A DNA stretch of 64,000 nt from Bdellovibrionaceae bacterium UBA3535 (GCA_002376845.1 DFOS01000008.1:3583-67582); one strand, 5' to 3'; shown: positions 13,138-50,352, counted from the stretch's first letter. Numbers and translations: made by a program. The notes: generated by a model not told the origin, from the sequence alone.

Positions 13138-13416
13138 ATGGACTATTTCGAGCCGCAAAATCCGGCCTATATAAAGAAAGAGCGAGCCAAGGCCAGGGAG
13201 CTGCGCAAGAGCCAGTGGTGGAAACAGAAATTGGCCACAGGCATCTGTTATTATTGCGAGCAACGCTTCGATAAGGAAGATTTGAATATGGATCATCTGA
13301 TTCCCCTAGTTCGAGGTGGAAAAACTAGCAAATCCAACTGCGTCCTCTCTTGTAAGGCCTGCAATTTCAAGAAAAAGCACAAAACCCCGGTGGACCTTAT
13401 TTTAGAGGAGCTCTAA
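13138..13416 (+). CDS. small free-standing HNH endonuclease
   Basis: 92 aa with zinc-ribbon CYYC...CKAC and HNH core DHLIPLVRGGKTSKSN. Confidence 0.8.
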   Translation: MDYFEPQNPAYIKKERAKARELRKSQWWKQKLATGICYYCEQRFDKEDLNMDHLIPLVRGGKTSKSNCVLSCKACNFKKKHKTPVDLILEEL

Positions 13417-13634: not shown

Positions 13635-15542
13635 TTGGCGCAGCAGACAAAAATTGTATCCAGCTCTACGGCGGAATATTTTGCAAAAAATTTACAGCAG
13701 GTGGGCTTCTCGTCCCCCACAAAAGCCGTGCTTACCACATTGAAAGAGGCGGTGGATAACTCTCTGGATGCTTGTGAAATGGCGGGTATTTTGCCCGAAC
13801 TTACCATTGAGATTAAAAAAATTGGTACCGGCTCACAGAAAAATACCGATTTGATCGAAATATCCGTGGAGGACAATGGGCCAGGGCTTGAGGCCGAGGA
13901 TTTGGCAAAAGTATTTGGCGAGTACTTGGCCTCCTCAAAGTTTGGACGCGGACAATGCTCCCGCGGACAACAAGGGATTGGTATTTCTGCCGCAACCACT
14001 TGGGCGCAGTTGACCAACGCCAAAGGCGTAGTGGTCACCTCGAAAACCAAGCGCATGCGAAAGGCAGTGCAGGGCCTCGTGAATGTTGATATCAAGGGTA
14101 ACAAGGGGATGTTTTTAAATAAAAAAAGCATCGATTGGGATAAAGAGCATGGCCTGAAAGTAGAATTCAAAATTGATGGGCGCATTCAGCTAAATGGTGA
14201 TGGGGGGCTGTTGACCTATCTAGAGGGCACCACCCTTTTAAACCCCCATGTAAAATTTAATTACAAATTGATGGACAATCCTTGGGTAAAGATAGATCGA
14301 GTTAGTAAAGATGTGCCTAGCATTCCGCCGCCAACTGATCCGCACCCGCACACCATGAAGCTGGGTGAGTTTATGACCCATGCACATATCTATGGAAATA
14401 TGAAAGTGGGCAAGTGGCTCAAAACAAGTTTCTCCCGTGTTTCAGAGAACGTTATAAAAAACTTTGTTAAAAACGGTTTAGAAAAAAAGTACCTCAATCA
14501 AACTTTACAAAAACTATCGGACGAAGAGTTTAAAAAGGCCTATACGGCCATTCAAAAAACCGATTTGATGTCACCGAGCACCAAGTCTGTACTGACGGTT
14601 GGAGAGGAGTCCCTAGCAAAAAGTATTCGGCGTATGGGAGAAGTGGATTTTTTCTCAGTAATAACTAGAAAGCCCAAAATATGTGACTTCAAGCCCGTAG
14701 TGGTGGAAGTTGCCATTGCAAGATTTTTAGATCGCGGTGGAGAGCATGACGATCCTGTACGACTTCTGCGCTTTGCGAACCGTGTGCCGCTACAATTCGA
14801 TAAGGGAAATTGCGCCATTACAAAATCCATTGAATCCGTGAACTGGCGCTCCTACGGACTGTCGCAGCCAAAAAATTCTTTGCCGCGCGGACCTTATATT
14901 TTTGCGGTGAGTGTGGTTTCTCCTTTCATTAAATTTAAAAATGCTTCAAAAGAAACGATCGATGCGTCAGACGAGTTGGTGGAGGAGTTGCGCCGAGCCC
15001 TAATGCAGGCGGGACAAAACCTTTCTAGGCATATCAAAAGAGAAGCTAGAGCTGCAGATGTAGAAAGGAAAAAGCAGCACATAGAAAAGTTTGGCCCCAT
15101 TCTTGTGGACACATTGGCGCGCATAGTGAAAGCGCCAGAAAAGAGGCGCAAAAAAGCGCAAGATGGTTTGCATAAGATTTTAGGACGTGACACCAAGGCA
15201 GAAGAGCAAAAGCTAGAGGTTGCCGAACAGCGCTTAATGGATTTAAAAGCAAAACGTTCCCACGTTTTAGAAACAAATGAAGAGGGCGAAGGCGCTAGCC
15301 AAGAGGCTCCAGTCACCGAAGTGAAGGCGAAGAAAAAGAAAACAGCAACGAAAAAGCAGGCTGCGAAGAAAAAAGCAAAAACGGCAAGCAAAAAGAAGGC
15401 CACCAAAAAGAAAACGGCTACAAAAAAGAAAGCTAGTAAAAAGAAAACGGCTACAAAAAAGAAAGCTAGTAAAAAGCAGGCTACTAAGAAAAAGACAAAA
15501 GCTAAGAAGGCCACAAAAAAGAAAACTAAGAGGACTCGATGA
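13635..15542 (+). CDS. top6B: DNA topoisomerase VI subunit B (type IIB, GHKL ATPase) with Lys-rich C-terminal tail
   Basis: Bergerat-fold motifs LKEAVDNSLDA, VEDNGPGL, GQQGIGIS. Alignable by eye to archaeal Top6B through PHPH...ITRKPK...LLRFANRVPLQFD. TTG start preceded by SD gaggtg. ATGA overlap with top6A. Confidence 0.88.
   Translation: MAQQTKIVSSSTAEYFAKNLQQVGFSSPTKAVLTTLKEAVDNSLDACEMAGILPELTIEIKKIGTGSQKNTDLIEISVEDNGPGLEAEDLAKVFGEYLASSKFGRGQCSRGQQGIGISAATTWAQLTNAKGVVVTSKTKRMRKAVQGLVNVDIKGNKGMFLNKKSIDWDKEHGLKVEFKIDGRIQLNGDGGLLTYLEGTTLLNPHVKFNYKLMDNPWVKIDRVSKDVPSIPPPTDPHPHTMKLGEFMTHAHIYGNMKVGKWLKTSFSRVSENVIKNFVKNGLEKKYLNQTLQKLSDEEFKKAYTAIQKTDLMSPSTKSVLTVGEESLAKSIRRMGEVDFFSVITRKPKICDFKPVVVEVAIARFLDRGGEHDDPVRLLRFANRVPLQFDKGNCAITKSIESVNWRSYGLSQPKNSLPRGPYIFAVSVVSPFIKFKNASKETIDASDELVEELRRALMQAGQNLSRHIKREARAADVERKKQHIEKFGPILVDTLARIVKAPEKRRKKAQDGLHKILGRDTKAEEQKLEVAEQRLMDLKAKRSHVLETNEEGEGASQEAPVTEVKAKKKKTATKKQAAKKKAKTASKKKATKKKTATKKKASKKKTATKKKASKKQATKKKTKAKKATKKKTKRTR
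15324..15539 (+). repeat. Lys/Ala/Thr/Ser-rich low-complexity coding repeat (Top6B tail, 72 aa)
   Basis: Sequence is [72 protein letters not shown]. Contains an exact 33-nt tandem duplication at 15408-15440 / 15441-15473 (KKTATKKKASK x2). Confidence 0.9.
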
Positions 15543-16693
15543 AAAAAGCCAGACTCAATCAAGCAGATATAAGCAAAAAATCCAAACTTCTATGCGAAAG
15601 AATGTTGGCCGATCTGGAGCAGGCAAAAAGGCCTGTACTCGAAGCGGTTAAGTGTAGTTTGGACAACTCTTTTTACAAGCCCAGTGTGGGTTACTTAACA
15701 CCTGGAGATAAGCGGGTCCGCACGGAATTAAATGTTTCCAGTGTGCAAAAACTATCGCGAACCGTTTTTATGCTAGAGATTCTTTTGCGCAATTTAGGGA
15801 CTGGCCAAGTGAACACAAAAAGGGAGCTCTACTATATCTCAAAAGGTATGGTGAAGCACAATAAGGAGCTCAAGGTCTTAGATTTTGATGAACAAACCGA
15901 ATCGGATGCAATCATCGACTTTATTTCGGATATGCTCGAGGTATATCGTGAGGAGTTAAATTGCTTTGCCAACGACCGAGGAGGGCAAACCTATTCCAAG
16001 CAATTGATTGTGGAAGAAACTTTACCGAACGGCAAAACGGCAACCATTGATTTAAGCACTTTGGGTACTTCGCCGTTTCAACCTAAGAACAAGCCGCAAA
16101 ATTTAAAACTTAGAAAACGCGGAAAGATTGATTTCGTATTGATCGTGGAATCAGAAGGTACGGCCAATACACTTGTTGCTAACGGCTTTACGGACCGTAA
16201 TAAGTGTATTGTGATTGGTGCTCAGGGGGTTCCCTCCAACGCTGTTCGCGGTTGGGCTCGTACCATTCAAAACCAGTTGGATGTACCCATGTATTTTTTT
16301 GGCGATTTGGATGCCTATACGCTGCAAAATATCTACCGCACATTAAAAGCCGGTAGTGCTGCCAGCCTGATACGAAATAGTGAGTTTTCCGCCCCCTCCG
16401 TGCGCTTTTTAGGGGTTCTACCAGAGGATGTACAGCAATACGATTTGCACTATTACAATGTAACGGAAAAAGATGCTTCCGAGCTGCGATCCATCAAAAA
16501 GGCGCAAGATGCCCTTAAAAATGATCCATTTTTCCAAGACAAGAAAAATAAAAAAATTGCGGCAATTTTGAAATGGTTGGTAAAAGAAAAAAAGCGTTGT
16601 GAACAGCAGGCTTTTTGGATGGTTAACCCGAAAGACCCTGTTACACCTGAAAAAATCATTTTGGATAAAATCAAAAAAGGCGCCTGGGTCTAA
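15539..16693 (+). CDS. top6A: DNA topoisomerase VI subunit A (Spo11/Top6A)
   Basis: Catalytic-Tyr region KRELYYISK. Toprim Glu (LIVESEGTA) and DxD (FFGDLDAYT). The 384-aa size is typical of Top6A. Confidence 0.88.
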   Translation: MKKARLNQADISKKSKLLCERMLADLEQAKRPVLEAVKCSLDNSFYKPSVGYLTPGDKRVRTELNVSSVQKLSRTVFMLEILLRNLGTGQVNTKRELYYISKGMVKHNKELKVLDFDEQTESDAIIDFISDMLEVYREELNCFANDRGGQTYSKQLIVEETLPNGKTATIDLSTLGTSPFQPKNKPQNLKLRKRGKIDFVLIVESEGTANTLVANGFTDRNKCIVIGAQGVPSNAVRGWARTIQNQLDVPMYFFGDLDAYTLQNIYRTLKAGSAASLIRNSEFSAPSVRFLGVLPEDVQQYDLHYYNVTEKDASELRSIKKAQDALKNDPFFQDKKNKKIAAILKWLVKEKKRCEQQAFWMVNPKDPVTPEKIILDKIKKGAWV

Positions 16694-30005: not shown

Positions 30006-30677
30006 ATGATCAAAAACAAACGGCAAGCAAAATATATTTCGCCCAGCATTTTGTCGGCAGACTTTACCAATATGAAAAAAGACTTGCTCTCCTGTGAGCG
30101 TGGAGGGGCTAACTTTATTCATATGGATGTTATGGATGGGCATTTTGTACCCAATATTAGTTTTGGTGTGCCGGTGATTCGCTCCTTGCGTGCAGCAAGT
30201 GCTTTGCCATTTGATACGCACCTGATGATCGAGAATCCAGAGCAATATGCTGAGGCTTTTATCGATGCCGGTTCGAATTATCTTACCTTTCATGTTGAAG
30301 CGAGCCAGAATCCTAAGTCTTTATTGCAATTCATTCGCTCTAAGGGGGCCAAGGCTGGTTTGAGTCTAAGGCCGAGCACCCACTTAAAAGAATTGATTCC
30401 TTACTTAAGAGAAGTGGATTTGATTTTGGTGATGACGGTGGAGCCCGGATTTGGTGGCCAAGAATTCATGGAATCGCAACTTGGAAAAATCCAAGAGCTA
30501 CATACTTTAAGAGAAAAGCATGAATTGGAATTTTTTATTTCGGTGGATGGCGGCATCAACCTGCAAACCGGCAGGCTCGCCGTAGATGCAGGGGCAGATT
30601 GCCTTGTAGCAGGCTCCTTTGTTTTTAAAAACAATGCCGTATCGGCACTGCAAGAATTAAGGAATTTACCATTATGA
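30006..30677 (+). CDS. rpe: ribulose-phosphate 3-epimerase
   Basis: Motifs SILSADF, HMDVMDGHFVPN, MTVEPGFGGQ and VDGGI. Confidence 0.95.
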   Translation: MIKNKRQAKYISPSILSADFTNMKKDLLSCERGGANFIHMDVMDGHFVPNISFGVPVIRSLRAASALPFDTHLMIENPEQYAEAFIDAGSNYLTFHVEASQNPKSLLQFIRSKGAKAGLSLRPSTHLKELIPYLREVDLILVMTVEPGFGGQEFMESQLGKIQELHTLREKHELEFFISVDGGINLQTGRLAVDAGADCLVAGSFVFKNNAVSALQELRNLPL

Positions 30678-32197
30678 TAGAGCTGGATGGACAATCGCTG
30701 AATTTAATAAAACTCATGGCCATTGCCGAGGGCGAGAAAGTTGCTCTTAGCAGTGAGGCAAAAAAACGCATTGTCGAGTCGCGCGAGTATATAGAAAAAA
30801 AACTGGCTGGCGAGGATGCGATTTATGGAGTGAATACTGGTTTCGGTGCCTTCTCCTCGGTTCGCATTAGTGATCAAGATATTGAGAAATTGCAGGTAAA
30901 TTTAATTCGCTCGCATTGCACCGGTGTGGGCGATCCGTTCACAAAGGATCAAACCCGCGCCATCATGGCCTTAAGAGCCAACGCTCTAGCCACGGGCCGC
31001 TCGGGCATTCGTTTAGAAACAGTAGAAAAAATTTTAGAATTTTTAAATCATGATATTCTGCCTGTGATTCCGCAGCAGGGGAGTGTGGGAGCCAGCGGCG
31101 ATCTAGCGCCACTATCTCACCTTGCTCTGGCCTTGATTGGTGAGGGCCAAGTGTGGCAGGGGGAGCAGCAGGTTGAAGTCTCCGATATTTTAAAGCAAAA
31201 AAAAATTGAGCCCGTAGTGCTTAAGGCGAAAGAGGGTTTGTCATTGATCAATGGCTGCCAGGTGATGACGGCCGTGGGCATGCTAGCGGTTGGCACGGCC
31301 ATTCGTTTGGCAAAAGCCGTGGATCTTGCCGGAGCCATTACGCTCGAGGCTCTGCAAGGAACACGCGCTGCCTTTGATCCTTTGATTCCGGAAACCAGAA
31401 AACATCCTGGGGAAGCGAAAACCGCCCGCAATTTATTAAAGCTCTTAGGTAGCACCTCGGCCATAGCGGAATCCCATGCCGATTGCTCGCGGGTACAGGA
31501 TGCGTACTCGCTTCGCTGCATGCCCGCCGTTCATGGCGCCGCCAAAGACGCCATTGATCGAGCTTTAGAAACTTTGGAAATAGAAGCCAATTCCTCTACG
31601 GACAATCCGCTCGTATTTGTGAAAGAAGATAAAATTTTATCTTGCGGCAATTTTCATGGTGAGCCCGTGGCCTTTGTTTTGGATTACTTGGGAATTGCCA
31701 TGGCGGCCATGTCGAGCATTGCGGAATGCCGCATTGAAAAGCTTATCAATCCGGCCATGAGTGGGCTTCCGGCCTTTTTGGCCAAAGATGGCGGATTGAA
31801 CTCGGGTATGATGATCGTGCAAGTCTCTGCTGCCTCACTCGTTAGCGAGAACAAAATTTTGGCACATCCAGCAAGCGTGGATTCTATACCTACTTCAGCA
31901 GACAAAGAAGACCATGTAAGTATGGGCACCATTGCTGCAAGAAAATTGCAAAGCATCATTCGTAATGCCGAGAACATTGTGGCCATGGAGCTGCTTTGTG
32001 CGACGCAGGCCTTGGATTTTCTAAAGCCGCTAGAGCCCGCCGCCGGAGTCAAAGCGGCCTATGATCGTATTAGAAAAGAAGTGTCTTTTGCTGAGGAAGA
32101 CCGAGTCTTTGCCAAAGACATTGAGACCATCAAAGAGATTTTACGCGGGGATTTGATGGATGTGGTGGAGAAGGCAAGCGGTAGCTTGGAATACTAA
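30674..32197 (+). CDS. hutH: histidine ammonia-lyase
   Basis: MIO-forming GSVGASGDLAPLSH motif. 507 aa. ATGA overlap with rpe. Confidence 0.93.
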   Translation: MIELDGQSLNLIKLMAIAEGEKVALSSEAKKRIVESREYIEKKLAGEDAIYGVNTGFGAFSSVRISDQDIEKLQVNLIRSHCTGVGDPFTKDQTRAIMALRANALATGRSGIRLETVEKILEFLNHDILPVIPQQGSVGASGDLAPLSHLALALIGEGQVWQGEQQVEVSDILKQKKIEPVVLKAKEGLSLINGCQVMTAVGMLAVGTAIRLAKAVDLAGAITLEALQGTRAAFDPLIPETRKHPGEAKTARNLLKLLGSTSAIAESHADCSRVQDAYSLRCMPAVHGAAKDAIDRALETLEIEANSSTDNPLVFVKEDKILSCGNFHGEPVAFVLDYLGIAMAAMSSIAECRIEKLINPAMSGLPAFLAKDGGLNSGMMIVQVSAASLVSENKILAHPASVDSIPTSADKEDHVSMGTIAARKLQSIIRNAENIVAMELLCATQALDFLKPLEPAAGVKAAYDRIRKEVSFAEEDRVFAKDIETIKEILRGDLMDVVEKASGSLEY

Positions 32198-32432
32198 TTA
32201 TTCCGTTACCCAGACAAACGCCGGATAAAAAATCTTTAAGATCGAAATAAATCTACAAGCAAGACTGGTAGCGTCTTTGCAAAAGAAAAGGCTGCTACCC
32301 ACTTGCAGAGACCTTTTGGCCCTTTTTCAACACTAGTTTAAAGGGGGTTCGATATGGATAGTAAAAGTTATTATCTTTATCGGCAGAAAATGACGCTATT
32401 TAAGTTTTTAGCGTTTAGCAACAATAAAAAAA

Positions 32433-32462
32433 GCTCTTACAAAGTAAGAGCCTTTTTTATTT
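32433..32462. terminator. bidirectional rho-independent terminator between convergent hutH and the fibre gene
   Basis: Perfect 8-bp stem gctcttac (32433-32440) / gtaagagc (32444-32451) with a 3-nt loop. An A-run lies upstream and a T-run downstream. Confidence 0.75.
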
Positions 32463-32478
32463 TGTAGATAGTTGAATT

Positions 32479-34953
32479 TTATTTCATACCAAGATGCGCT
32501 TTGATGGCTTCAATCTCTTTTTTCAATTCGGCATTTTCTTTTTCTAAAGCTTTTACCTTATGACTCATTTCCACAACAGCCTTTAGTTGATAGAGCTGAA
32601 AACTCACGCCATAGCGAATACGCTTATAACCATTTTCATCGGTAACCACCATCTCAGGAAAAATCTTCTCGAGCTCCTGCGCAATCAAGCCTACTTCATG
32701 TCCTTCGCGTCCATGAATATGTTGGTTCTCTTTTTTCCAGTCGTATTCAACAACATTGATCTGCGATACTTTGTCGAGGGTGGATTCGATAGGGGAGATG
32801 TTTTCTTTGAAGCGGACGTCGGATACGCATGTACCTGTTTGTGGCGTCATACCATCATCAACTATACAATCATATACTTGCACATCATTGTTTGCTAACA
32901 AAGACATAGTTGGAAATCCATCAAGCCCATGTTTGAAAGTTATATCTCCATTATCCATTACGTTAATATCCCAATTTTCGGGACTAAAATTGTTTACTAG
33001 CTTTAAAGATGTTTCTGACTGACTTATTGTATGAACTTCAAGACTAGCAATTGGAGCATTAGTCCCAATCCCCAATTTACTGCCTGGATTGGGGAGAAAT
33101 AGTTCGCCAGTTGAAATGTCTCCTTCCATTAGTATGTTAGCACCACTTCCCAAAAGGAATCTATCATTCAGAGGGCCAGGCTCCGTATCATAGACATTAT
33201 ATCCTATAACAACATTATTGTTCCCGCTTGAAGCATCTCTATAGGCGTTAGCACCTATCAATACATTTCCAGATCCCTCAACGTTCCCGCCAGCTCTATA
33301 TCCTAAAGCAGTATTATTATTAAAAGTAGTTAAATATTGCAGAGAACCAAATCCTATAGCAGTATTCATCCCTCCTGATGTAATGGAGCTAATAGAGTTA
33401 CTGCCTAAAGCTGAGTTATAGCTTCCTGTAGTAATGGTACTGCCTGTTGCAAACCCAACACCAGTGTTATGGGTACCGGTGGGCAAATAATCAGTACCAA
33501 TAATCATGTTGTTCCCGCTGAATGAAGCGTCAGTTAGGCTGTCTATAGTGCCGCCGCCGCCACCAGGTGTACCACACACAAATTGATTCATGGCTGAATT
33601 CCATTGAAGAGCATCTGCGCCAGTACAATCAGTGCCTCCTCCTAGACCTCCAATTGAGGCGTCCATAAAAAGGTCATTAACAAAATTGTGAACAGATTGT
33701 TCGGAAGGTATCACATCTGTCGCCATCCCGAGCCCGCCAGTTTGGACACCAGTAATTGTGTTTCCGCCAATAGTCACATTTCCAGAAAATGTGGCGTTGC
33801 CGGTAGTAGTAAGCACACCAGTGAGACTTAGGTCGCCAGCTATATTAACAATCGATGCAGAATTAGAAATTATTGAATCTTCTAGGCCGTTTCCACCAGA
33901 ATTGATTCTAGGAATCTTACCCACAGTACCAGAGATTCCAGCTCCAGTTTGGTCCGTTTCGCAGCCAAATGCAGTGCCAGTCCAAGTAAGAAAACTACCT
34001 GCCTCACAAATGCCACTATCTATACTCAGGTTCGCAGCACCTGATGCCGCTCCTCCACTTAAGCCATTACCTGCAGTAACATCGGTGATATCGCCAACAC
34101 TAGAATCACATGCCCAAGTACTGGGTCCTTTCATTAATACTTGACCTGTAGTACACAAGGCATCATCTAGCTCTGCAAGACCTACTGTATCAGCTTGTAA
34201 AGTAGTTACACCGGTGTTACTCAATTCAATATCGCCGGTAATATCTACAGCTGAGGCTGTACCGGCATTGCCCACATATACATAGCTATCAGTTAGCGCT
34301 GTAGGCAAACCACCACCGCCAGTTTCATCTGTCTCACAGTCAAAGTTCGTACCATTCCAAGTAATTTTATTTCCGGTACCGGAACAGGAAGCAATATTAG
34401 AGGTATCAATAGAAGCGTTTAATACACCACCTGTTAATGAACCTACAATTCCATTTCCTGGAGTGAATGTGTGAGCAAAATCATTAGCTGATTTATCACC
34501 TAGTCTGTTTGCCATCATTGCCATGGGCACGGACTGAATGGGCTGTTTTGGTAGTGTCTCAATATTAGTTTGGTCATTGAAGGTAATTTCAATTAAAAAA
34601 GGTTCACCTGGGTTGTAAGAGGCCGAACAAGATGCTTCCCCTAATATTCCACTTTTGTAAAAGTAATTTTCTAAAAAACCGTTGCTAAAAGTGTTAGGAG
34701 AAGAGCCCTTACCAATATCTAGATAAAAAGCACCGTTACTTGTACTTAAATCATTGTCTAGATGCTGTTCTTCATATATTTTACAATCACCATCAATATC
34801 ATAAAGAGCAACGGTGATGTCGACATCAGGTGCTGTTATAGGGCTGCCACCTAAATCAGTTAAGACTCCGCTATAAGTGAATCCCCATTGTTGCTGTGCA
34901 TGGGCTGTGCCCATAAAAATAAAAAATAGAAAAAACGTACAAAGAGTTTTCAT
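32479..34953 (-). CDS. secreted tail-fibre-like protein with C-terminal peptidase-S74 intramolecular-chaperone domain
   Basis: Trimmed to the ATG at 34953 (signal MKTLCTFFLFFIFMGTAHA/QQ). Four Cys-bracketed C-x(n)-W-x(n)-C modules. Gly/Asn/Ser-rich Hep_Hag-like repeats (NSALGSNS...NTAIGFGS...NTALGYRAG...NVLIGANA...NVVIGYNV). C-terminus SDVRFKENI...VVEYDWK...GLIAQELEKIFPEMV followed by a coiled coil. Confidence 0.8.
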   Translation of the reverse strand: MKTLCTFFLFFIFMGTAHAQQQWGFTYSGVLTDLGGSPITAPDVDITVALYDIDGDCKIYEEQHLDNDLSTSNGAFYLDIGKGSSPNTFSNGFLENYFYKSGILGEASCSASYNPGEPFLIEITFNDQTNIETLPKQPIQSVPMAMMANRLGDKSANDFAHTFTPGNGIVGSLTGGVLNASIDTSNIASCSGTGNKITWNGTNFDCETDETGGGGLPTALTDSYVYVGNAGTASAVDITGDIELSNTGVTTLQADTVGLAELDDALCTTGQVLMKGPSTWACDSSVGDITDVTAGNGLSGGAASGAANLSIDSGICEAGSFLTWTGTAFGCETDQTGAGISGTVGKIPRINSGGNGLEDSIISNSASIVNIAGDLSLTGVLTTTGNATFSGNVTIGGNTITGVQTGGLGMATDVIPSEQSVHNFVNDLFMDASIGGLGGGTDCTGADALQWNSAMNQFVCGTPGGGGGTIDSLTDASFSGNNMIIGTDYLPTGTHNTGVGFATGSTITTGSYNSALGSNSISSITSGGMNTAIGFGSLQYLTTFNNNTALGYRAGGNVEGSGNVLIGANAYRDASSGNNNVVIGYNVYDTEPGPLNDRFLLGSGANILMEGDISTGELFLPNPGSKLGIGTNAPIASLEVHTISQSETSLKLVNNFSPENWDINVMDNGDITFKHGLDGFPTMSLLANNDVQVYDCIVDDGMTPQTGTCVSDVRFKENISPIESTLDKVSQINVVEYDWKKENQHIHGREGHEVGLIAQELEKIFPEMVVTDENGYKRIRYGVSFQLYQLKAVVEMSHKVKALEKENAELKKEIEAIKAHLGMK
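32482..32823 (-). other. predicted auto-cleaving intramolecular chaperone (peptidase S74) domain of the fibre protein
   Basis: The last 114 aa start at Ser750 of the 863-aa ORF numbering, within CVS-DVRFKENI. This matches the S-D-x-R-x-K cleavage motif of endosialidase-type tail-spike chaperone domains. Confidence 0.65.
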
Positions 34954-34954
34954 T

Positions 34955-35653
34955 TTATAACCCCTTAATTTTAAAATGTGTGGTGCCATCGACACCAGAT
35001 TTAGAAATACTTGATCCAATATTACTATTTTTAATACTAAAATCTGTGGAGCCAGGTACATTGCCACCACCAGCTAGAACTTCGCCATTGCGGGGCCCAC
35101 TAGGTGCGGTGCCATCATCCAAACACGTCGGAGGCGCCCCAATCGAGCTGGCCACATGATTTGCTAAACCCGGAAAGCTCGCATTGATTTCCACCGTGAT
35201 TTCCGGGGCATCAAAATTAATGCCATTGGCTTGTCCTATTAAATATACTTCATTAAGTTCACCATTATTTAAGCCAGCCGAGGCTCGGCAACCTGTGCCT
35301 AAAGGCTGTAAGTGTAAATATACTTTTATGTCGCGGGCAGCGCCTCTTGGAGCCAAGATTTCAATATTACCACCAGCGGGAACATAGCCTTGAAATAAAC
35401 CTTGCTCCGGTGAGCACGTATTCGCTGGAGCACTAATCAAATCGGGCGCCGTAATGTTTACGCCAAAGCAGTAATCATAGCCAACCGGAAAGGCGCTCAT
35501 GGAACCAACAACCTTACCTTGCAACTGTTGCTGAGTAGGAGCTTTGATCACGAGCTTAGATTTTGTTTCATCTTCAAAGAAACGTGAACAAGCTGTGGTG
35601 AAAACCAGCAGCGTAATAAGCCCTAAAGTTTTAAAAATACCAAAGATTTGCAT
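34955..35653 (-). CDS. hypothetical lipoprotein co-oriented with, and 1 nt upstream of, the fibre gene
   Basis: Signal plus lipobox LLVFTTAC. Cys-containing beta-rich body with a Gly-rich C-terminus. The start region reads GTG-TTG-ATG, and the ATG at 35653 was chosen. Confidence 0.55.
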   Translation of the reverse strand: MQIFGIFKTLGLITLLVFTTACSRFFEDETKSKLVIKAPTQQQLQGKVVGSMSAFPVGYDYCFGVNITAPDLISAPANTCSPEQGLFQGYVPAGGNIEILAPRGAARDIKVYLHLQPLGTGCRASAGLNNGELNEVYLIGQANGINFDAPEITVEINASFPGLANHVASSIGAPPTCLDDGTAPSGPRNGEVLAGGGNVPGSTDFSIKNSNIGSSISKSGVDGTTHFKIKGL

Positions 35654-35734
35654 CAACACTACTTCGGTAGAGTCGAGAAAAATCTAAAGACATGCATCGT
35701 GATCTTTGTAAAAAAAAATGTATCGGAATGATCG

Positions 35735-35763
35735 ATTGTAAGGGAGGAGTTAAGGCAGTTCAA
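35735..35763 (-). promoter_or_regulatory. near-consensus sigma-70-type promoter of the lipoprotein/fibre cassette
   Basis: On the minus strand: TTGAAC (35763-35758), 17-nt spacer, TACAAT (35740-35735). It lies ~80 nt upstream of the ATG at 35653 and just downstream of the GST stop. Confidence 0.5.
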
Positions 35764-35793
35764 AGTTGATACAATATTGCCAGTATCAATCTG

Positions 35794-36408
35794 CTACATC
35801 TGTTGAATTAATGCTTTGGCCCTCTCAAAAGAAGACAAGGACTTCATATCTTTCACATAGCTTTTTAACCGAGCGTTCGTTAGTAGCTGTAAATGGCTGG
35901 CCCAATTTAGGGTTTGGGCAACAAATAGATCGGCCATATGGTATTCATCCCCGATTAAATATTTTTGTTGCTGTAGACATTCCGCTAGTACCTTTTCGTT
36001 CTTTGCAAAATCCTGCTTGGGGCCTTTTTTGGCATCCTCGGAGCGTAGCTCTTCCGGGTAGACGTGCGTATGCTTGGCAATCGTCCAAGGCGCTTGCTCT
36101 AGCTCGGACAAACACCAAAACATCCACTGATCATTTAGCGCTCGCTCTTTAGACCCCTCTTTGGGCAGAAGCTTTTGCTCGCCTGCCAGATTACAGATGT
36201 AATAGGCAATCGCCGCTGATTCAAAAAGCAAAAAGTCACCATCTTTAAGCGCCGGTACTTTGCCGTTGGGATTGATCTTGCGGAAATCTTCGCTATGAGA
36301 TTCTTGTCCGGGTTTTACCGGATGCATTTTGTAAGGCATAGCTAGTTCTTCGAGTAGCCAATAAATGCGAAAAGCTCTTGTGCCAGGTGCTCCGTAGATT
36401 TCAATCAT
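35794..36408 (-). CDS. glutathione S-transferase family protein
   Basis: 204 aa. N-terminal thioredoxin-like GST region (KINPNGKVPALKDGDFLLFESAAI) and a helical C-terminal domain. Confidence 0.75.
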   Translation of the reverse strand: MIEIYGAPGTRAFRIYWLLEELAMPYKMHPVKPGQESHSEDFRKINPNGKVPALKDGDFLLFESAAIAYYICNLAGEQKLLPKEGSKERALNDQWMFWCLSELEQAPWTIAKHTHVYPEELRSEDAKKGPKQDFAKNEKVLAECLQQQKYLIGDEYHMADLFVAQTLNWASHLQLLTNARLKSYVKDMKSLSSFERAKALIQQM

Positions 36409-36607
36409 GTGCCGATCTTAAAATTGCTTTTGCAATCTGGCTAGCAAAATTTTATTTTGCGTTATGTGCAAAAAAGATTGACGACTTTTTTGCGCCAGCA
36501 GTTTCTTGCCTGTTTGAAAAATAACGAATTCGGAATGATTTTTCTATCTCGATCATGTCTTTTTTCGTCAGCACCTTTGTTAATAGCTTCAAATGACATA
36601 TCTTATT

Positions 36608-37468
36608 TACTTTAAGCAGTGATAAAAAATGGCATTTAAAAACCTGTGTTATAAAAGATTTCGGAGGTACACATGCTGCAAGACTTGCAAAATTTGGTAT
36701 GGATGGAAAAGAAAATCACCGCCGAGATATTAGAAAAACTGCAAGTGGTCTACGACCAGAAAGACTTTGCTGGCTATAGCAATTTATTTGAATATATGGT
36801 CAAGGGCTTGGGCTATTCCGAGGCTACGGCCAGTTTGCGTCAATCCTGTTTGCGCCTACTACGTGAAATGCCGGAGCTAAAAGACAAAGTTAGAGAAGGC
36901 AAACTCAGCTATACAACCATAGCGCGCTCCTACAAATTCATCAAAGAGCAACCTACTGCGAAAAAGCGAGCGACTTTAAGCAGTCTCGAAAATCAATCCT
37001 CTCGAAAAGCTCTTGAGATATTAGAAAAGCAATCACCAGCTCCCGAGATTCAGGTGCAAAAGCGCCATTATCAAGATAGGGTGCGTTTAACGATCGATCT
37101 AAGCCACGAAGAGTATGAAAAACTGCAAAGACTGAAGGCTTTAAGCAGCCATCGCTACGGCTCTTATGAGGAGCTCATAAAATCTTTCATTGCTAAAGCG
37201 CATAAAAAATATGAAGACGATGACTTTAAGCAGTCACGCTCGAAAAACCCACGTTATATCTCGCAAAGATTACGCAACCATCTACTTAAGCAGGCAAATT
37301 ATCGCTGCCAAAAGGCGGGCTGCACGCAGGATCATCATTTGCAGATCGATCATATTCAGCCGGTAGCTAGGGGCGGGCAAGCCACAGCAGAGAATTTGCA
37401 GGTTTTATGCTTTTATCATAACCAACAAAAGGCTTGTCATTAAACCGTGCATTTTCTACTTTAAGCAG
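36608..37468 (+). repeat. dispersed array of six copies of CTTTAAGCAG (five exact, one CTTAAGCAG) in and around the HNH gene
   Basis: Exact 10-mers at 36610, 36974, 37139, 37224 and 37459, and a variant ending at 37293. The outermost copies extend to a 12-nt direct repeat TACTTTAAGCAG (36608-36619 and 37457-37468). Confidence 0.85.
36673..37443 (+). CDS. HNH endonuclease domain protein (long N-terminal helical domain, DUF222-like)
   Basis: C-terminal HNH core CQKAGC...[32 protein letters not shown] cggagg lies before the ATG. The N-terminal family assignment is tentative. Confidence 0.75.
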
Positions 37469-37481
37469 CATAGGAGGCAGT

Positions 37482-39128
37482 ATGCGTAATATTCACAGCC
37501 CGACGGGGGACAAATTACATTGCAAGGGTTGGTTGCAAGAGGCGGCCTATCGAATGATTCAAAACAATCTCGATCCTGCGGTAGCAGAAAAACCAGAAGA
37601 TCTTATCGTTTATGGCGGCATCGGAAAAGCCGCGCGCAATTGGCCTTCTTATGAAAAAATACTAGAAGCTTTAACTACTTTAGAAAATAACGAGACCTTA
37701 TTGGTTCAATCGGGAAAGCCCATCGGCATCATTCAAAGTCATGAAGATGCACCAAGAGTTTTGATTGCCAATTCCAATTTGGTGGGGAATTGGGCGAATT
37801 GGGATCATTTTCATGAACTCGATAAAAAGGGCCTGATGATGTATGGGCAAATGACCGCAGGTTCATGGATTTACATTGGCTCGCAAGGAATCGTGCAAGG
37901 CACTTATGAGACCTTTGTGGAATGTGGCAATCGCTATTTTGGTGGCGACTTGAAAGGCAAAACCATTCTGACAGCGGGCCTTGGCGGTATGGGCGGTGCG
38001 CAGCCGCTGGCAGGAGTTTTTGCAGGCGCCACCGTCTTGGCAGTAGAAATTGATCCCGAAAGAATTCAAAAGCGACTTGCCACACGCTATATCGATGAAG
38101 TAGCCGACAATCTTGATGATGCCCTTGCAAGGGTAGAGAAATACCGCAAAGCCGGAGAAGCTAAGTCCATTGCACTAGAAGGAAATATGGCGGATGTCAT
38201 CCACCAGTTGATTGATAAAGGCTTTCAACCCGACATTTTGACCGACCAAACTTCCGCCCACGATCCGCTCAACGGTTACATTCCCTCCGGTTACTCTTTA
38301 GAAGAGGCCGCCAAATTACGAAACGAAAACCCAGATCTTTACGAACAAAAATCCATCGCCTCCATGGCCAAACATGTAGAGGGCATGTTGAAAATGCAAA
38401 AGCAAGGCGCCAAAACCTTTGATTACGGCAACAACATTCGCGCCCGTGCGGTAGAGGGCGGCTGCGAAAATGCCTTTGATATTCCTGGCTTTGTGCCTGA
38501 GTTTATAAGACCTTTATTTTGTAAAGGCTCGGGGCCCTTTCGCTGGGTAGCACTCTCGGGTGATCCTGCTGACATTAAGGTTACGGATGATTGCTTGCGC
38601 GAGCTTTTTCCTGAAAAAAAGAATCTTCTCCGCTGGCTGGATATGGCCGAAGAGCGCATTGCCTATCAAGGTTTGCCGGCACGAATTTGTTGGCTCGAAT
38701 ATGGCGAGCGCGCCAAAGCGGGTTTGGCCTTCAATCAATTGGTGAAAGAGGGAAAAGTCAAAGCTCCGATTGTCATTGGCAGGGATCATTTGGATTGCGG
38801 ATCGGTTGCCTCTCCCAACCGAGAGACCGAGGCGATGAAAGATGGCTCGGATGCCGTAGCGGACTGGCCGATTTTAAATGCTTTAGTAAATACCGCTTGC
38901 GGCGCTACCTGGGTGAGTTTTCACCACGGCGGCGGTGTGGGCATGGGCTATTCGCTGCATGCTGGACAAGTCATCGTTGCCGACGGTAGCGAGAAAGCGG
39001 CGCAGAGATTGGAGCGTGTTTTAACCGCCGATCCTGGCATGGGCCTTTTTCGACATATTGATGCGGGCTACGAAGAGGCCGAAAAAATTGGTAAAGAGCG
39101 CGGCTTGAAATCTTTGTGGTACAAATAA
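37482..39128 (+). CDS. hutU: urocanate hydratase
   Basis: Trimmed to the ATG at 37482 (SD aggagg at 37471-37476). Motifs [14 protein letters not shown] and [18 protein letters not shown]. Confidence 0.95.
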
Positions 39129-40346
39129 ATGAAACTATTTAAAAATATATCTACACTTTATACTTTAAAATCTGCCGCAAAAAAATCGGGAAAAAATCTT
39201 ACAGCAAAAGATTTGAGCCCGATGAAGAATGCCGCCATGCTAGTGGATAACAAAGGCCGCATTGAGTGGATCGGCAAATCCAGCGCAGCTCCTCGCAAAA
39301 TAAAAAAAGTTATCGACTTAAAAGGGAAAAATGTTTTTCCCGCCTTCATCGATTGTCATAGTCATTTGGTCTTTGCTGGCAATCGGGCAAAAGAATTTGA
39401 GCTACGCAATCAAGGGGCGAGCTACCAAGAGATTGCCAAAGCCGGGGGCGGGATTTTGAATACCGTGAAGCAAACCCGTAAAGCCTCAAAAAAAGATTTG
39501 GCAATTCTAGCGCAAGAACGGGTGAATTGCTTTCTGCGCCAAGGGGTAACGACCATTGAGTCCAAAAGCGGCTACGGTTTGAACTTTAAACATGAAAAAA
39601 AATTATTGGAAGTGAACCAGGAATTAAAAAAGGCGCGCATCATTTCAACTTACCTAGGTCCCCATGCAAAGTCCCCCGATTATAAAAGCTTAGATGAATA
39701 TATGCAGGCAATTTTGCAGCATGATTTGGAAAAGGTCTTTCGTAAAGGCCTAACTTGCCGGGCGGATATTTTTGTTGAGAAGGGCTATTTTACCAAAGAG
39801 CATTTGAAAAAATATTTGGCTAAAGCAAGAGAATTAAAAATGCATGTCACCATTCATGCTGACCAGATGTCCTCCACAGAAATTGTCGATCTTGCCATTG
39901 AAAATAAAGTAAAATCGCTGGATCATTTGGTCTACATTCAAGAAAAGGAAATCAAGCCGCTAGCCCAATCAGAGGTAACAGCGGTAATGCTACCCACAGC
40001 TGAAAAATACATTCATATTCCCTATCCACCAGCGCGCAAGCTTTTGGATCAAGGCTGCCGAGTGGCTTTGGCTACAGATTTTAATCCGGGCTCTTCGCCA
40101 ACCCAGGACCTATCCTTTCTTGGAGTGCTCGCACGATTGGATTTAAAAATGCTGCAACATGAAGTCTTTGCTGCCATGAGCCTAAATGCTGCCCATGCTT
40201 TGGGGCTTGAAAAAGATTTGGGCTCTTTGGAGGTTGGAAAGTATGCCGATTTTTTTATCTCAGAGGCCGACTTAGAGGATTTCTTTTACGGTGTGGGAAG
40301 ACACCCGGTGGAAAAGGTTTACCGCGAGGGCAAGCCTGTTAAATAG
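39129..40346 (+). CDS. hutI: imidazolonepropionase
   Basis: Amidohydrolase metal ligands FIDCHSHLVF, HADQ and ATDFNPGS. Directly abuts the hutU stop. Confidence 0.92.
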   Translation: MKLFKNISTLYTLKSAAKKSGKNLTAKDLSPMKNAAMLVDNKGRIEWIGKSSAAPRKIKKVIDLKGKNVFPAFIDCHSHLVFAGNRAKEFELRNQGASYQEIAKAGGGILNTVKQTRKASKKDLAILAQERVNCFLRQGVTTIESKSGYGLNFKHEKKLLEVNQELKKARIISTYLGPHAKSPDYKSLDEYMQAILQHDLEKVFRKGLTCRADIFVEKGYFTKEHLKKYLAKARELKMHVTIHADQMSSTEIVDLAIENKVKSLDHLVYIQEKEIKPLAQSEVTAVMLPTAEKYIHIPYPPARKLLDQGCRVALATDFNPGSSPTQDLSFLGVLARLDLKMLQHEVFAAMSLNAAHALGLEKDLGSLEVGKYADFFISEADLEDFFYGVGRHPVEKVYREGKPVK

Positions 40347-47436: not shown

Positions 47437-48216
47437 GTGCATTGTAATACAGCATGCATGGATGGTCAGGGGCTATTTCGAGATTTTTTAATGACTTATA
47501 TGAGCGATTTGCAGCAAAGCAATCCCTCTTATTCAATGCGAGCGTTTGCTAAAAAATGCTCTGTTCACCCCGCTGTCATCTCGGAGATATTCAGTGGAAA
47601 ACGCAAGGTGTCCACATCGTATGCAAAAAAAATCTTAGAGAACTTAATGATCGACCCCATTAAGCAAGAGCAATTAATTACTTGTTTTGATGATAAGTCT
47701 AGTTCCGAAGATATAAAGTTCAAGCAATTACGAGCTGATCAATACTTTGTTGTGGCGGACCCGATTTATTATTCACTCCTATCATTATTTGATACTCGCA
47801 AGCCTCCCGAACAGCCAGATGAAATAGCGAAGCGTTTAGGCGTCTCGACTTGGAGGGTGGAGCAGGCCATAGAGAGGCTCATTCGACTAGGATTTATTAA
47901 AAAGCATAAAAGTAGCTATAAAAATGTCAGCGAGCCGCTTACAACTACAGAAGATATCGCCAATTCTTCTTTAAAGAAACGTCACGAAAATAATTTAAGA
48001 GCAGCGTTAGAATCACTTTACTCAGATCCAGTTGATGAACGCGATTTTTCTTTTATTACTATGGCAATAGATCCTGACAAAATACCTAAAGCAAAAAAAA
48101 TGATTCGAAAGTTTAAACGAGAACTGGCTAAGGAGCTAGAATCAGGAAATCAAGCAGAAGTTTATGAATTATCTATACAATTATTTCCTCGCTCAAAAAA
48201 AGGAGAGCTAACATGA
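47437..48216 (+). CDS. DUF4423 / TIGR02147-like putative HTH regulator (start uncertain: GTG 47437 or ATG 47458)
   Basis: N-terminus FRDFLMTYMSDLQQSNPSYSMRAFAKKCSVHPAVISEIFSGKRKVS matches my recollection of the TIGR02147 family N-terminal HTH-like region. ATGA overlap with the next gene. Confidence 0.55.
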   Translation: MHCNTACMDGQGLFRDFLMTYMSDLQQSNPSYSMRAFAKKCSVHPAVISEIFSGKRKVSTSYAKKILENLMIDPIKQEQLITCFDDKSSSEDIKFKQLRADQYFVVADPIYYSLLSLFDTRKPPEQPDEIAKRLGVSTWRVEQAIERLIRLGFIKKHKSSYKNVSEPLTTTEDIANSSLKKRHENNLRAALESLYSDPVDERDFSFITMAIDPDKIPKAKKMIRKFKRELAKELESGNQAEVYELSIQLFPRSKKGELT

Positions 48217-50246
48217 AGTATATTATTCTAACCATTACTCAGCTGTTCGTTGTAAGTATGTATGCGTTTGCTGCAAATGAAGGTGGAAATGGGGATTACT
48301 GCGAACAACAAGATTCTATATGTGAGCGAGTGTATTTTGAGGCCTCCAGTAGACATCCTTTGCAAGATAAACTGCTTCAATTAATACGAAGCGCGAAGAT
48401 GCCCAATTACTTAAAAGATGAAATGCTTCGAGATTTACGAGAAACGCTTGTTATTTATAGTGGAGAAGAAATCAGTGTCAAAGATCTACGTTCAAGATAT
48501 GAGAAGCAGGTTACTTCTGTAACCACTAGCGAGGAATTTGATAAGGATGGTAATTTAGTAAAGAAAACAGTTACCACAAAAGAAGATTACCATGAGATTC
48601 TGCCTAAACTAGGAATATTTATACATGGTCCAATAGGTTATAAAGTCGGTGATGAGGAGAACGTTTTTGTAAGAGCGATTACAGAGACAAAACCCATTCC
48701 AAAAGTCATTTATTTTAAGCGCTTCTTAGATTCTATGACAGAGCGCGAGTTAATACAGTTAGTTCTACATGAGCAAGGGCATAGGTTAAAATACTTTAAA
48801 CATAGAGAAGACGAAAGAGCCGTTGAAGGTTGGGCTAATACCATGTCACAGTACCTATTTTCTGAAATTAGCTACGAGGATTTTAAGCAAGATTTAAAAG
48901 CCTTGGGATTTAGATTTGAGACTAGACTTGAGTTTCCGAATCAAAAATATTTAAAGGATAATATTTTTTACTCAGATATCGAGGTAGTTCTTTTTCCCGA
49001 TGATATCATAAACACTGCTATCACTCGTGATCAGTCTTTTCTAGTCGAAGTCGCCGCGAAAGTGTTTGAGAGTTATCCGAGTTTAAAGGGACGTAATCAA
49101 ATACTTCGCATCCGAGGCGAGGTAGAGAGCGCTATAAGATTTTTTGATCAAATAAAAAGGGGTAATGGTGCTACAAGTATAAAATTAAGGGTTACTTATA
49201 CTAAAAAGCTTATAGGGGAAAGTAACAGCTCCTTGTCTACGGAGCAGAGCATTGACTTTATAAGTATGTCAACTTTAGAAATGGAGCAACTAGAGCAGCA
49301 GATTAGTGGTATTACAGAGCCATTTAACTTCTACTTTGATTTTCTAATTGTCGACAAGCATAAATGGGTGCTGCAAAAAAATAAAGAGGAAATGAAGCAT
49401 GTTGTTTTGTATTTGGCCAGTCAATTTGTTGATAGGATTCGAAAAGGGCTGGAGCTTAAGCCTTACGTATACCAAAATATTAACAAAGCATTATATAATA
49501 GAAGTATAACGATTGATTTTTCTGATAAGTGGAATATCAAATATGCTATCGATGAAGATGAAGATGAAGATGAAGATGAAGACGGTAAGTACAGTTTTGA
49601 AAAAATAGAGATTTTTATTGATCAAGATAGCCCCATGGAGGAGCAAGCAGATAAAATATTATCAGCTTTTTTTGAAGAAATAGAGGGGCATTTTGCAGAG
49701 GCTGGGCGTAAAGCAAAGGCTGCTGCAGCCAATAAAAAGTTGCATGAGTATTTTGCGCGTGGTTCAGCGGAAGCTTTGGTGGTGAATATGGATCATCCTG
49801 ATGAGGATTTGCGCTACTATAAAGATGCATTAGCAGAAACAAATTATATTGACTACGCTATGTGTATCCACAGAACTATGCAAGCTAAAAAAATACCAGA
49901 CTTTAAAGTTCACTTGGAGACTAGTAATGATAATTTAGATACTATTTCATATGAATTATATGAAAATAATTTGTATCTGTACATTTCTAGAAATATTTTT
50001 AATGATAAAACTCTTAAGCGAATTTCCAGAGATGTCTTGATTTCTGATAATCTACTTTTTAGGCATCATGAGTTATATTACAAGCGAATTCTTAAAGTAA
50101 ATAGTTATAGTATTACAATGAATGAAAGTAGTTACTCCGAAGTCAGTTTTACATATCGTCCATATTTTCAAGAGTGGAAGATAGATTTTACTATAGCTAT
50201 ATCGGAAAGTTTCGATTTATGTGAGGAGGTCGCTACCTCAAAGTAG
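48213..50246 (+). CDS. hypothetical secreted 677-aa protein with HExxH motif and poly-Asp/Glu tract
   Basis: Signal MKYIILTITQLFVVSMYAFA/AN, LVLHEQGHRL (HExxH), and acidic run IDEDEDEDEDEDGKY. Visibly AT-richer DNA. No family recognised. Confidence 0.6.
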   Translation: MKYIILTITQLFVVSMYAFAANEGGNGDYCEQQDSICERVYFEASSRHPLQDKLLQLIRSAKMPNYLKDEMLRDLRETLVIYSGEEISVKDLRSRYEKQVTSVTTSEEFDKDGNLVKKTVTTKEDYHEILPKLGIFIHGPIGYKVGDEENVFVRAITETKPIPKVIYFKRFLDSMTERELIQLVLHEQGHRLKYFKHREDERAVEGWANTMSQYLFSEISYEDFKQDLKALGFRFETRLEFPNQKYLKDNIFYSDIEVVLFPDDIINTAITRDQSFLVEVAAKVFESYPSLKGRNQILRIRGEVESAIRFFDQIKRGNGATSIKLRVTYTKKLIGESNSSLSTEQSIDFISMSTLEMEQLEQQISGITEPFNFYFDFLIVDKHKWVLQKNKEEMKHVVLYLASQFVDRIRKGLELKPYVYQNINKALYNRSITIDFSDKWNIKYAIDEDEDEDEDEDGKYSFEKIEIFIDQDSPMEEQADKILSAFFEEIEGHFAEAGRKAKAAAANKKLHEYFARGSAEALVVNMDHPDEDLRYYKDALAETNYIDYAMCIHRTMQAKKIPDFKVHLETSNDNLDTISYELYENNLYLYISRNIFNDKTLKRISRDVLISDNLLFRHHELYYKRILKVNSYSITMNESSYSEVSFTYRPYFQEWKIDFTIAISESFDLCEEVATSK

Positions 50247-50352
50247 TTGTAACTAGTGTCTTAGGGTGTTTATACCTGTTGTCGCCCTTATTTTCTAGGG
50301 GCGGTGGAGTGTCGAAAGTTTAAGACTAGCTCGTAGAAGCTCTGCTTAATTT

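Follow-up and report, generated by a model that had tools for sequence, protein, structure and literature searches.

Mosaic adhesive trimer (MAT) proteins have been defined by four features, namely a signal peptide, a conserved beta-rich N-terminal domain (N-domain) of ~130 amino acids (aa), a fibre that is trimeric and a tip that varies, and 13 of the 21 MATs of Bdellovibrio bacteriovorus HD100 end in a peptidase S74 module with an SDxxxK motif (Caulton 2024, PMC10769870). The cell-surface element bound by the N-domain was left unidentified in this founding paper, where it "awaits further study", and no lipoprotein is mentioned there (Caulton 2024, PMC10769870). A connection between MATs and a lipoprotein was likewise not found in the MAT literature that was searched. 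Here we describe a gene pair in a 64,000-nucleotide (nt) stretch of Bdellovibrionaceae bacterium UBA3535 (GCA_002376845.1 DFOS01000008.1:3583-67582; the whole stretch is hereafter referred to as the window), in which a gene encoding a MAT-type fibre directly follows a gene encoding a lipoprotein. The source sequence was a marine surface metagenome (Tara station 132). The two genes are taken to form an operon on the chromosome of an uncultured marine bacterium that almost certainly belongs to the Bdellovibrionota. Named relatives of both genes were metagenome-assembled genomes (MAGs) of Bdellovibrionota, with one exception labelled only 'Pseudomonadota bacterium'. The fibre is a new S74-type MAT and, taken by itself, adds an unremarkable member to a known family. 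The new part of the finding is the lipoprotein, which represents a database-orphan family and is a likely new partner for a MAT fibre. The two genes are the following.

34955-35653, minus strand: lipoprotein gene, 232 aa (open reading frame, ORF; family without an existing name)
32479-34953, minus strand: MAT-family fibre gene, S74 subgroup, 824 aa (ORF; NCBIfam Bdello_MAT_N; Pfam S74)

Identity of the fibre and its linkage to the lipoprotein gene

The ORF calls bore out the two-gene minus-strand unit proposed in the original prediction, which was a reading of the DNA by itself: a 232-aa lipoprotein is followed 1 nt later by an 824-aa secreted protein, at the positions given there. The junction reads TAA-A-ATG, and the fibre ATG is preceded by the Shine-Dalgarno sequence AAGGGG. 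Three segments of the fibre are relevant to its classification.

34897-34953, minus strand: Sec signal peptide, aa 1-19, cleavage between AHA and Q (sequence inspection)
34471-34896, minus strand: MAT N-domain, aa 20-161, including the Cys57/Cys109 pair (NF053851.1)
32482-32823, minus strand: S74 intramolecular chaperone/protease, aa 711-824 (Pfam PF13884)

The Sec-type signal peptide was recognized by inspection (MKTLCTFFLFFIFMGTAHA, followed by QQQ). The following region, previously taken for a unique N-terminal domain, turned out to be the known MAT N-domain: aa 10-161 matched NF053851.1 (Bdello_MAT_N, 'mosaic adhesive trimer family chimeric fiber protein') with 78.8 bits (E=3.9e-22) against a curated cutoff of 60 bits, and the alignment spanned profile positions 2-159 of 162. 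Fibres from two related cassettes, those of L007 and L017, were matched by this model as well. BLASTP with the N-domain gave E-values of 2e-12 to a 'tail fiber domain-containing protein' of Pseudobdellovibrio and 2e-11 to a fibre of a Bdellovibrionales MAG. An AlphaFold2 (AF2) monomer model of the N-domain, built on a 3-sequence alignment, was all-beta, with a predicted local distance difference test score (pLDDT) of 60, and was too poor for a fold search.

At the C-terminus, the predicted endosialidase-type (peptidase S74) chaperone was confirmed by a match of aa 711-769 to Peptidase_S74 (PF13884; E=1.9e-17, 63.7 bits against a cutoff of 22), the sole Pfam domain of the fibre, and by the catalytic SDxxxK motif, present as SDVRFK (aa 711-716, nt 32806-32823). 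A C-terminal coiled coil was found at aa 785-824. PDB sequence matches of the S74 region were a putative tail fibre protein (8jov), the ICA domain of MyRF (7dc3) and the distal subunit of a long tail fibre (6f45). S74 chaperones are known to drive trimerization. By analogy with S782 of Bd3182, an auto-cleavage site is predicted directly before S711 (PMC10769870).

Because the NCBIfam N-domain model was passed and the S74 SDxxxK module was present, the fibre was placed in the S74 subgroup of the MATs. The domain identities are established at the level of sequence, and membership in the MAT family is very probable; we infer that the fibre trimerizes, is cleaved, is displayed at the surface and binds prey.

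To describe the relationship between the two genes, loci were collected from a GTDB genome scan (five loci, four of which were labelled Bdellovibrionota and one 'Pseudomonadota bacterium'), from exact-protein look-ups of diverse members of the lipoprotein family, and from a metagenome scan that used the fibre N-domain as its seed. The ORFs of all loci were scored with hidden Markov models (HMMs), one for the lipoprotein and one for the fibre N-domain. Downstream sequence was available for 11 distinct loci (the window, L003, L004, L005, L006/7, L009, L011, L012, L013, L017, and L024). In each of these, the next gene after the lipoprotein gene, on the same strand, encoded a protein that starts with a signal peptide and a MAT N-domain. 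The distance between the two genes was about -14 to +26 nt in 10 loci and at most 90 nt in L004, and the N-domain HMM matched fibres outside its training set with E-values of 1e-31 to 1e-57. The linked lipoproteins were 18-54% identical to that of the window. The settings of the cassettes were unrelated and included hut genes, methylcrotonyl-CoA carboxylase, lexA, PBP1, patatin/OEP, and mur genes. Further, the linked fibres ranged from 529 to 1361 aa and carried either S74 tips (window, L007) or non-S74 tips (L005, L009, L012, L013, L017, and L024). The linkage held across these varied tips and neighbourhoods, which indicates that it tracks the invariant N-domain rather than the tip or the context. 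MAT genes make up ~1% of a genome, so that adjacency in 11 of 11 loci cannot be due to chance.

In L003, the cassette adjoined hutU as it does in the window, and the lipoprotein was 54% and the fibre N-domain 34% identical to the respective window protein. The shared position together with these identities indicates that the site is old and that the fibre is diverging, or has been replaced, faster than the lipoprotein.

Several points weigh against a dedicated partnership of the two proteins. An S74 MAT of Pseudobdellovibrio that was found independently of the lipoprotein (P0025) had ppk upstream and no such lipoprotein. Another MAT N-domain protein (P0038; 454 aa, three Cys-bracketed modules; L023, 1120-2777), from a high-GC organism, was preceded by an unrelated 98-aa lipoprotein gene with a 4-nt overlap. 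Thus, the lipoprotein partner is not universal among MAT genes, and the latter case suggests that MAT-like fibres of other lineages may be paired with other lipoproteins. The fraction of MAT genes having the lipoprotein is a weak and biased figure, since the genome and metagenome scans used narrow patterns and yielded few loci. No fusion of the lipoprotein core with a MAT N-domain was found in the top 150 representatives of the lipoprotein family, and a mirror-tree comparison of lipoprotein and N-domain divergence gave a weak correlation (Mantel r=0.275, p=0.11, n=10). In addition, physical contact between lipoprotein and fibre is something that we infer, and exposure of the lipoprotein at the surface something that we assume. 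The non-significant Mantel test, the MAT genes without the lipoprotein and the hypothetical nature of the contact would all suit a lipoprotein that is an unrelated operon-mate, such as a further surface protein belonging to the attack-phase regulon, with no direct functional tie to the fibre. Such an arrangement is very unlikely, given that 11 of 11 adjacencies, in differing contexts, at 18-54% identity and with overlapping or near-abutting frames, are not explained by chance or residual synteny. We therefore consider the lipoprotein a likely functional partner of the MAT fibre. The earlier guess that the two are functionally tied is thereby strongly supported by the linkage, and the lipoprotein may serve in anchoring, assembly or export.

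Domain composition of the two proteins

The lipoprotein consists of three segments.

35588-35653, minus strand: signal peptide and lipobox Cys22 (…LLVFTTA-C-S); Cys22 in at least 90% of 105 aligned members
35114-35566, minus strand: beta-sandwich core, aa 30-180, with C62, C80, C122, and C177 (AF2 model)
34958-35101, minus strand: conserved C-terminal tail, aa 185-232, with three short strand-like motifs (column statistics, 105 members)

The leader is hydrophobic and ends in FTTA-C22, and lipidation is predicted; the residue at -3 (Thr) is atypical. A lipobox-like leader was found in 123 of 150 family representatives, in which the +2 residue was mostly Ser, Thr, or Gln. The lipoprotein had no match in Pfam, PHROG, NCBIfam, or PADLOC, and a word-indexed protein search returned only the query itself. 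A HMMER search of 1.84 billion cluster representatives recovered 344 clusters at E<=1e-3 and 197 at E<=1e-10. The four core cysteines were invariant across the 105 aligned members, and the AF2 model built on this alignment had a mean pLDDT of 82, with values of 85-97 in core blocks and <50 in the last ~45 residues. The tail was nevertheless conserved in sequence, with the consensus motifs GFR[IV]S.G, [TS]G.G[YF][KR]L.[GA]R[VI]G, and L[TS]G.G[YF]K[LI]K.

Foldseek searches with the lipoprotein model gave nothing significant against the PDB (best E=0.11, TM score 0.24) or against viral models (best E=0.03). A type V pilin or fimbrial fold was considered and rejected, as FimA (6jzj) and a fimbrial assembly protein (3r4r) were matched only with E-values of 0.2-0.3 and TM scores of 0.23-0.27. 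The type V pilins FimA/Mfa of Bacteroidota serve as a working analogy, namely a lipidated beta-sandwich whose conserved C-terminal strand region becomes ordered only on pairing with a partner, but the lipoprotein has no sequence similarity to them and is not a member of that family.

The 150 top representatives fell into two architectures. There were 114 proteins of at most 262 aa, 104 of which had the tail, and 36 longer, fused proteins, 34 of which lacked it. The long members (up to 1456 aa) carried the lipidated core at the N-terminus, followed by Calx-beta, RCC1, Kelch, HYDIN-type Ig, or beta-helix domains. Since it heads giant lipoproteins of surface type, the core appears to serve as a base close to the membrane on which large passengers of extracellular type are mounted. 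The stand-alone form would have the short conserved tail in place of such a passenger, and according to the model this tail does not fold alone. Giant lipoproteins with the core that were found in metagenomes were P0105, P0107, P0129, P0139, P0143, P0145, P0152, P0171, and P0188. A separate lipoprotein subfamily of ~330-345 aa had the core without the tail; the one contig retrieved for it stopped at the lipoprotein gene.

Between its N-domain and the S74 module, the fibre contains the following features.

33574-34386, minus strand: fibre shaft with four Cys-bracketed modules (sequence)
34336-34386, minus strand: Cys module C190-C206
34108-34155, minus strand: Cys module C267-C282
33961-34008, minus strand: Cys module C316-C331
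33574-33627, minus strand: Cys module C443-C460
33154-33486, minus strand: Gly/Asn-rich repeats of 'N-T-A-x-G' type, aa ~490-600 (PHROG 6002, 4636)
33034-33075, minus strand: capping-loop-like motif LGIGTNAPIASLEV, aa 627-640, resembling the published consensus inexactly

The four Cys-bracketed modules were present as predicted, and such C-x14-16-C modules were also found in other MAT-like fibres (P0038, L003, and L017). The Gly/Asn-rich repeats matched PHROG 6002 and 4636 (virion structural protein, tail spike) with E-values of ~1e-12 to 1e-13. Matches to PHROG tail-fibre, baseplate, and tail-spike families were limited to the C-terminal ~45% of the fibre (aa ~446-821). Near the tip, MATs have a capping loop with the consensus V-G-G/N-pi-x-x-P-x-x-x-L (Caulton 2024, PMC10769870); the corresponding segment here, LGIGTNAPIASL (aa 627-638), kept the G..P...L register without fitting the consensus exactly.

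Similar Gly/Asn repeats occur in matches labelled trimeric autotransporter adhesins by JGI, and the repeats had been described as Hep_Hag/YadA-head-like in the original prediction. The repeats proved real and matched tail-spike families, but Pfam YadA_head or Hep_Hag was found neither on the whole fibre (E<=0.1) nor on the isolated repeat segment (E<=10). A trimeric autotransporter adhesin of YadA/Hep_Hag type would account for the NTAxG-type repeats, for the JGI labels of some homologues and for a weak YadA_head match in one cassette fibre. The fibre has no YadA anchor, its C-terminus is S74 and the head domains were missing even at the permissive threshold, so that such an assignment is scarcely credible and is refuted at the level of defining domains. 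The likeness to these adhesins (YadA, Hep_Hag) would thus lie in the probably obligate trimeric, surface-adhesive nature of the protein and in its Gly/Asn-rich head-like repeats, whereas the beta-barrel anchor and the Pfam YadA domains are missing. Without a YadA beta-barrel, another element is needed for attachment to the cell, and the separate lipoprotein is a candidate.

Compared with the S74 subgroup of HD100 MATs, such as Bd3182, the fibre has in common a signal peptide, a beta-rich N-domain, a long fibre, a C-terminal S74 SDxxxK module, and a chromosomal gene without prophage context; a capping-loop-like motif of VGIGT..P...L type, in partial agreement with the consensus, and a putative FliA-type attack-phase promoter may be added to these. 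It differs in its origin from an uncultured marine lineage, in its length (824 aa against typically ~1000 aa), and in having four Cys-bracketed shaft modules, a Gly/Asn repeat block, and a conserved upstream lipoprotein. Its N-domain was only ~23-34% identical to those of the other MAT-like fibres retrieved. With phage S74 fibres and spikes (the T5 L-shaped tail fibre pb1, K1F endosialidase, and T4-like long tail fibre distal subunits), it shares the C-terminal chaperone/protease and an adjacent beta-helical region. Unlike these, it has no virion-attachment N-terminus and no phage genes nearby, and instead carries a Sec signal peptide and a cellular MAT N-domain.

Genomic setting and transcription signals

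The Pfam content of all called genes in the window was of housekeeping type, including rpe, hutH, GST, HNH, hutU, hutI, fmt, def, lptF/G, aconitase, Topo VI-like A/B, the opp transporter, ribosomal protein L25, and prs. Among these called genes, no capsid, terminase, baseplate, tail-tube, or integrase gene was identified across the 64 kb. A tRNA scan of the window found none, an Rfam scan gave no match, the cassette showed no GC anomaly, and no paralogue of either cassette gene was present within the window. Neither cassette protein matched a defence system in PADLOC. This gene content agreed with the predicted lack of prophage context; flanking phage genes, which the original prediction had named as the sign of a prophage remnant, were looked for in the window and none was found.

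The S74 domain and the many PHROG tail-fibre matches on the C-terminal 45% are what would be expected if the cassette were a prophage remnant, made up of an orphan tail fibre and a phage lipoprotein with, for example, a superinfection-exclusion or lysis-associated function. This is highly improbable: the 64 kb lacked phage, integrase, and tRNA genes and had normal GC, the fibre has a Sec signal peptide and a cellular MAT N-domain, and the cassette occupies the same chromosomal position in the diverged relative L003. In addition, neither the N-domain nor the lipoprotein was found in IMG/VR viral contigs by narrow peptide-pattern scans, and the lipoprotein had no viral fold match. The proposal of a domesticated fibre displayed by the cell itself, like the chimeric fibres of Bdellovibrio, is consequently supported beyond analogy by the NF053851 match, the S74 SDxxxK module and the absence of phage genes in the 64 kb.

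Three transcription signals were considered around the cassette.

35662-35688, minus strand: candidate FliA (sigma-28)-type attack-phase promoter, TTTAG (35688-35684)-N16-CCGAAG (35667-35662)
35735-35763, minus strand: sigma-70-like hexamers TTGAAC-17-TACAAT, the promoter of the original prediction, 9/12 match
32423-32461, bidirectional: intrinsic terminator common to the cassette and the convergent hutH (-20.1 kcal/mol, z=-7.06)

An alignment of the upstream regions of the window and L003 exposed a conserved block, which in L003 reads TTTAG-N16-CCGATA. In the window, TTTAG-N16-CCGAAG was the sole match to TTWAG-N16-CCGAWR in 64 kb on both strands (0.34 expected), and its -10 box ends 8 nt before the lipoprotein ATG. 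A relaxed form of the motif, with a spacer of always 16 nt, was found upstream of the lipoprotein gene in seven of 11 distinct cassettes, against a background of 0.035 per 180 nt (binomial P~2e-8). Where the start codon was clear (five loci), the ATG lay 7-10 nt beyond the end of the -10 box, so that the lipoprotein mRNA is predicted to have no leader or almost none. Sites of this type in other loci were located at L003 4504-4530, L004 5973-5999, L012 375-401, and L017 4965-4991. Of 140 attack-phase promoters in B. bacteriovorus, 92 were reported to carry the FliA consensus TTAAG-N16-CCGATA, among them promoters of 'cell-surface anchors' (Karunker 2013, PMC3627812). The window site is imperfect relative to this consensus (4/5 and 4/6), which counts against the assignment. 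At the level of the motif, the FliA-type site supports an autonomous attack-phase transcription unit.

The sigma-70-like hexamers, described as near-consensus in the original prediction, do exist, but match at only 9 of 12 positions; 10 sites of equal quality were found in 4.6 kb against 11.2 expected by chance, and the -10 hexamer was not conserved in the syntenic L003. The site is therefore weak as a cassette promoter, and the sigma-28-type site is, judged by sequence, the better candidate. The GST gene (35794-36408) lies directly upstream of the lipoprotein gene on the same strand, so that read-through into the cassette may occur. Downstream, the prediction of a perfect bidirectional terminator held: the hairpin, which is perfect, lies 18 nt past the fibre stop codon and has an A-run at one end and a U-run at the other; none of 200 shuffled sequences equalled it.

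With regard to the surroundings, the histidine-utilization (hut) genes (30674-40346) were interrupted by the minus-strand block of fibre, lipoprotein, and GST genes, which separates hutH from hutU and hutI. Two HNH endonuclease genes were present, at 36673-37443 (+) and ~13138-13416 (+). The former encodes 256 aa with a weak DUF222-like N-terminus, had weak PADLOC matches to type II restriction endonucleases and overlaps the start of hutU; it stands together with GST between the cassette and hutU, and both of these spacer genes were missing from the syntenic L003 site. Elsewhere in the window, adjoining genes for Topo VI-like subunits B (HATPase_c and Topo-VIb_trans) and A (TP6A_N/Spo11 Toprim) were found at 13635-16693 (+) in this bacterial genome. 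The GC content fell to 0.355 at 48000-50250, a region containing a 677-aa ORF (48213-50246) without Pfam match, located downstream of an HTH/DUF4423 gene.

Proposed role of the gene pair

An operon encoding a MAT fibre together with a lipoprotein dock is, in our judgement, the best explanation of these data, and a reasonably probable one. Transcription of the pair would probably start at the FliA (sigma-28) attack-phase promoter and give a near-leaderless mRNA, on which translation of the fibre gene would be coupled to that of the lipoprotein gene. The fibre would be exported via Sec and would trimerize under the control of the C-terminal S74 chaperone, which would then cleave itself off before Ser711. 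The mature fibre of ~690 residues would hold its N-domain at the cell surface, and its phage-like distal part, comprising the Gly/Asn repeats and a beta-helix tip, may contact glycans on the prey surface. The lipoprotein would combine a lipid anchor, a disulphide-stabilized beta-sandwich and a conserved tail that is disordered alone. As an outer-membrane dock for the MAT N-domain, it may capture the fibre non-covalently by folding its tail onto the fibre base.

That the lipoprotein is specifically the anchor of the fibre is only a tentative assignment of its role. The same linkage data would fit a dedicated partner that acts transiently in the periplasm or outer membrane as an assembly or export factor, such as a chaperone, an usher, or a surface-translocation helper. 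The route by which MAT fibres cross the outer membrane is unexplained (PMC10769870), and a tail that is disordered alone would suit a chaperone for an unfolded or partly folded substrate. Such a factor seems rather unlikely to us: the core is a permanent N-terminal part of large surface-type lipoproteins, which fits a structural base better, and S74 already provides a trimerization chaperone for this fibre.

Returning to the lipoprotein, we tentatively propose that its family provides the MAT system with its missing component on the cell side, either the outer-membrane element bound by the N-domain or a surface-delivery factor. The core may be a general lipid-anchored base in Bdellovibrionota, attached covalently to its passenger in giant RCC1/Kelch/Calx-beta lipoproteins and non-covalently to MATs through the three-motif tail. 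Together, the lipoprotein and the candidate sigma-28-type promoter mark out a variant of the MAT cassette.

For broad prey recognition by predatory bacteria, MAT fibres are at present the strongest candidates, and how they are held at or delivered to the predator surface was an open point of the founding paper. A lipoprotein that tracks the N-domain is a concrete and testable candidate for this function. It may be of use for annotating MAT cassettes in metagenomes, for engineering fibre display in 'living antibiotic' strains, and for defining a new lipoprotein domain family.

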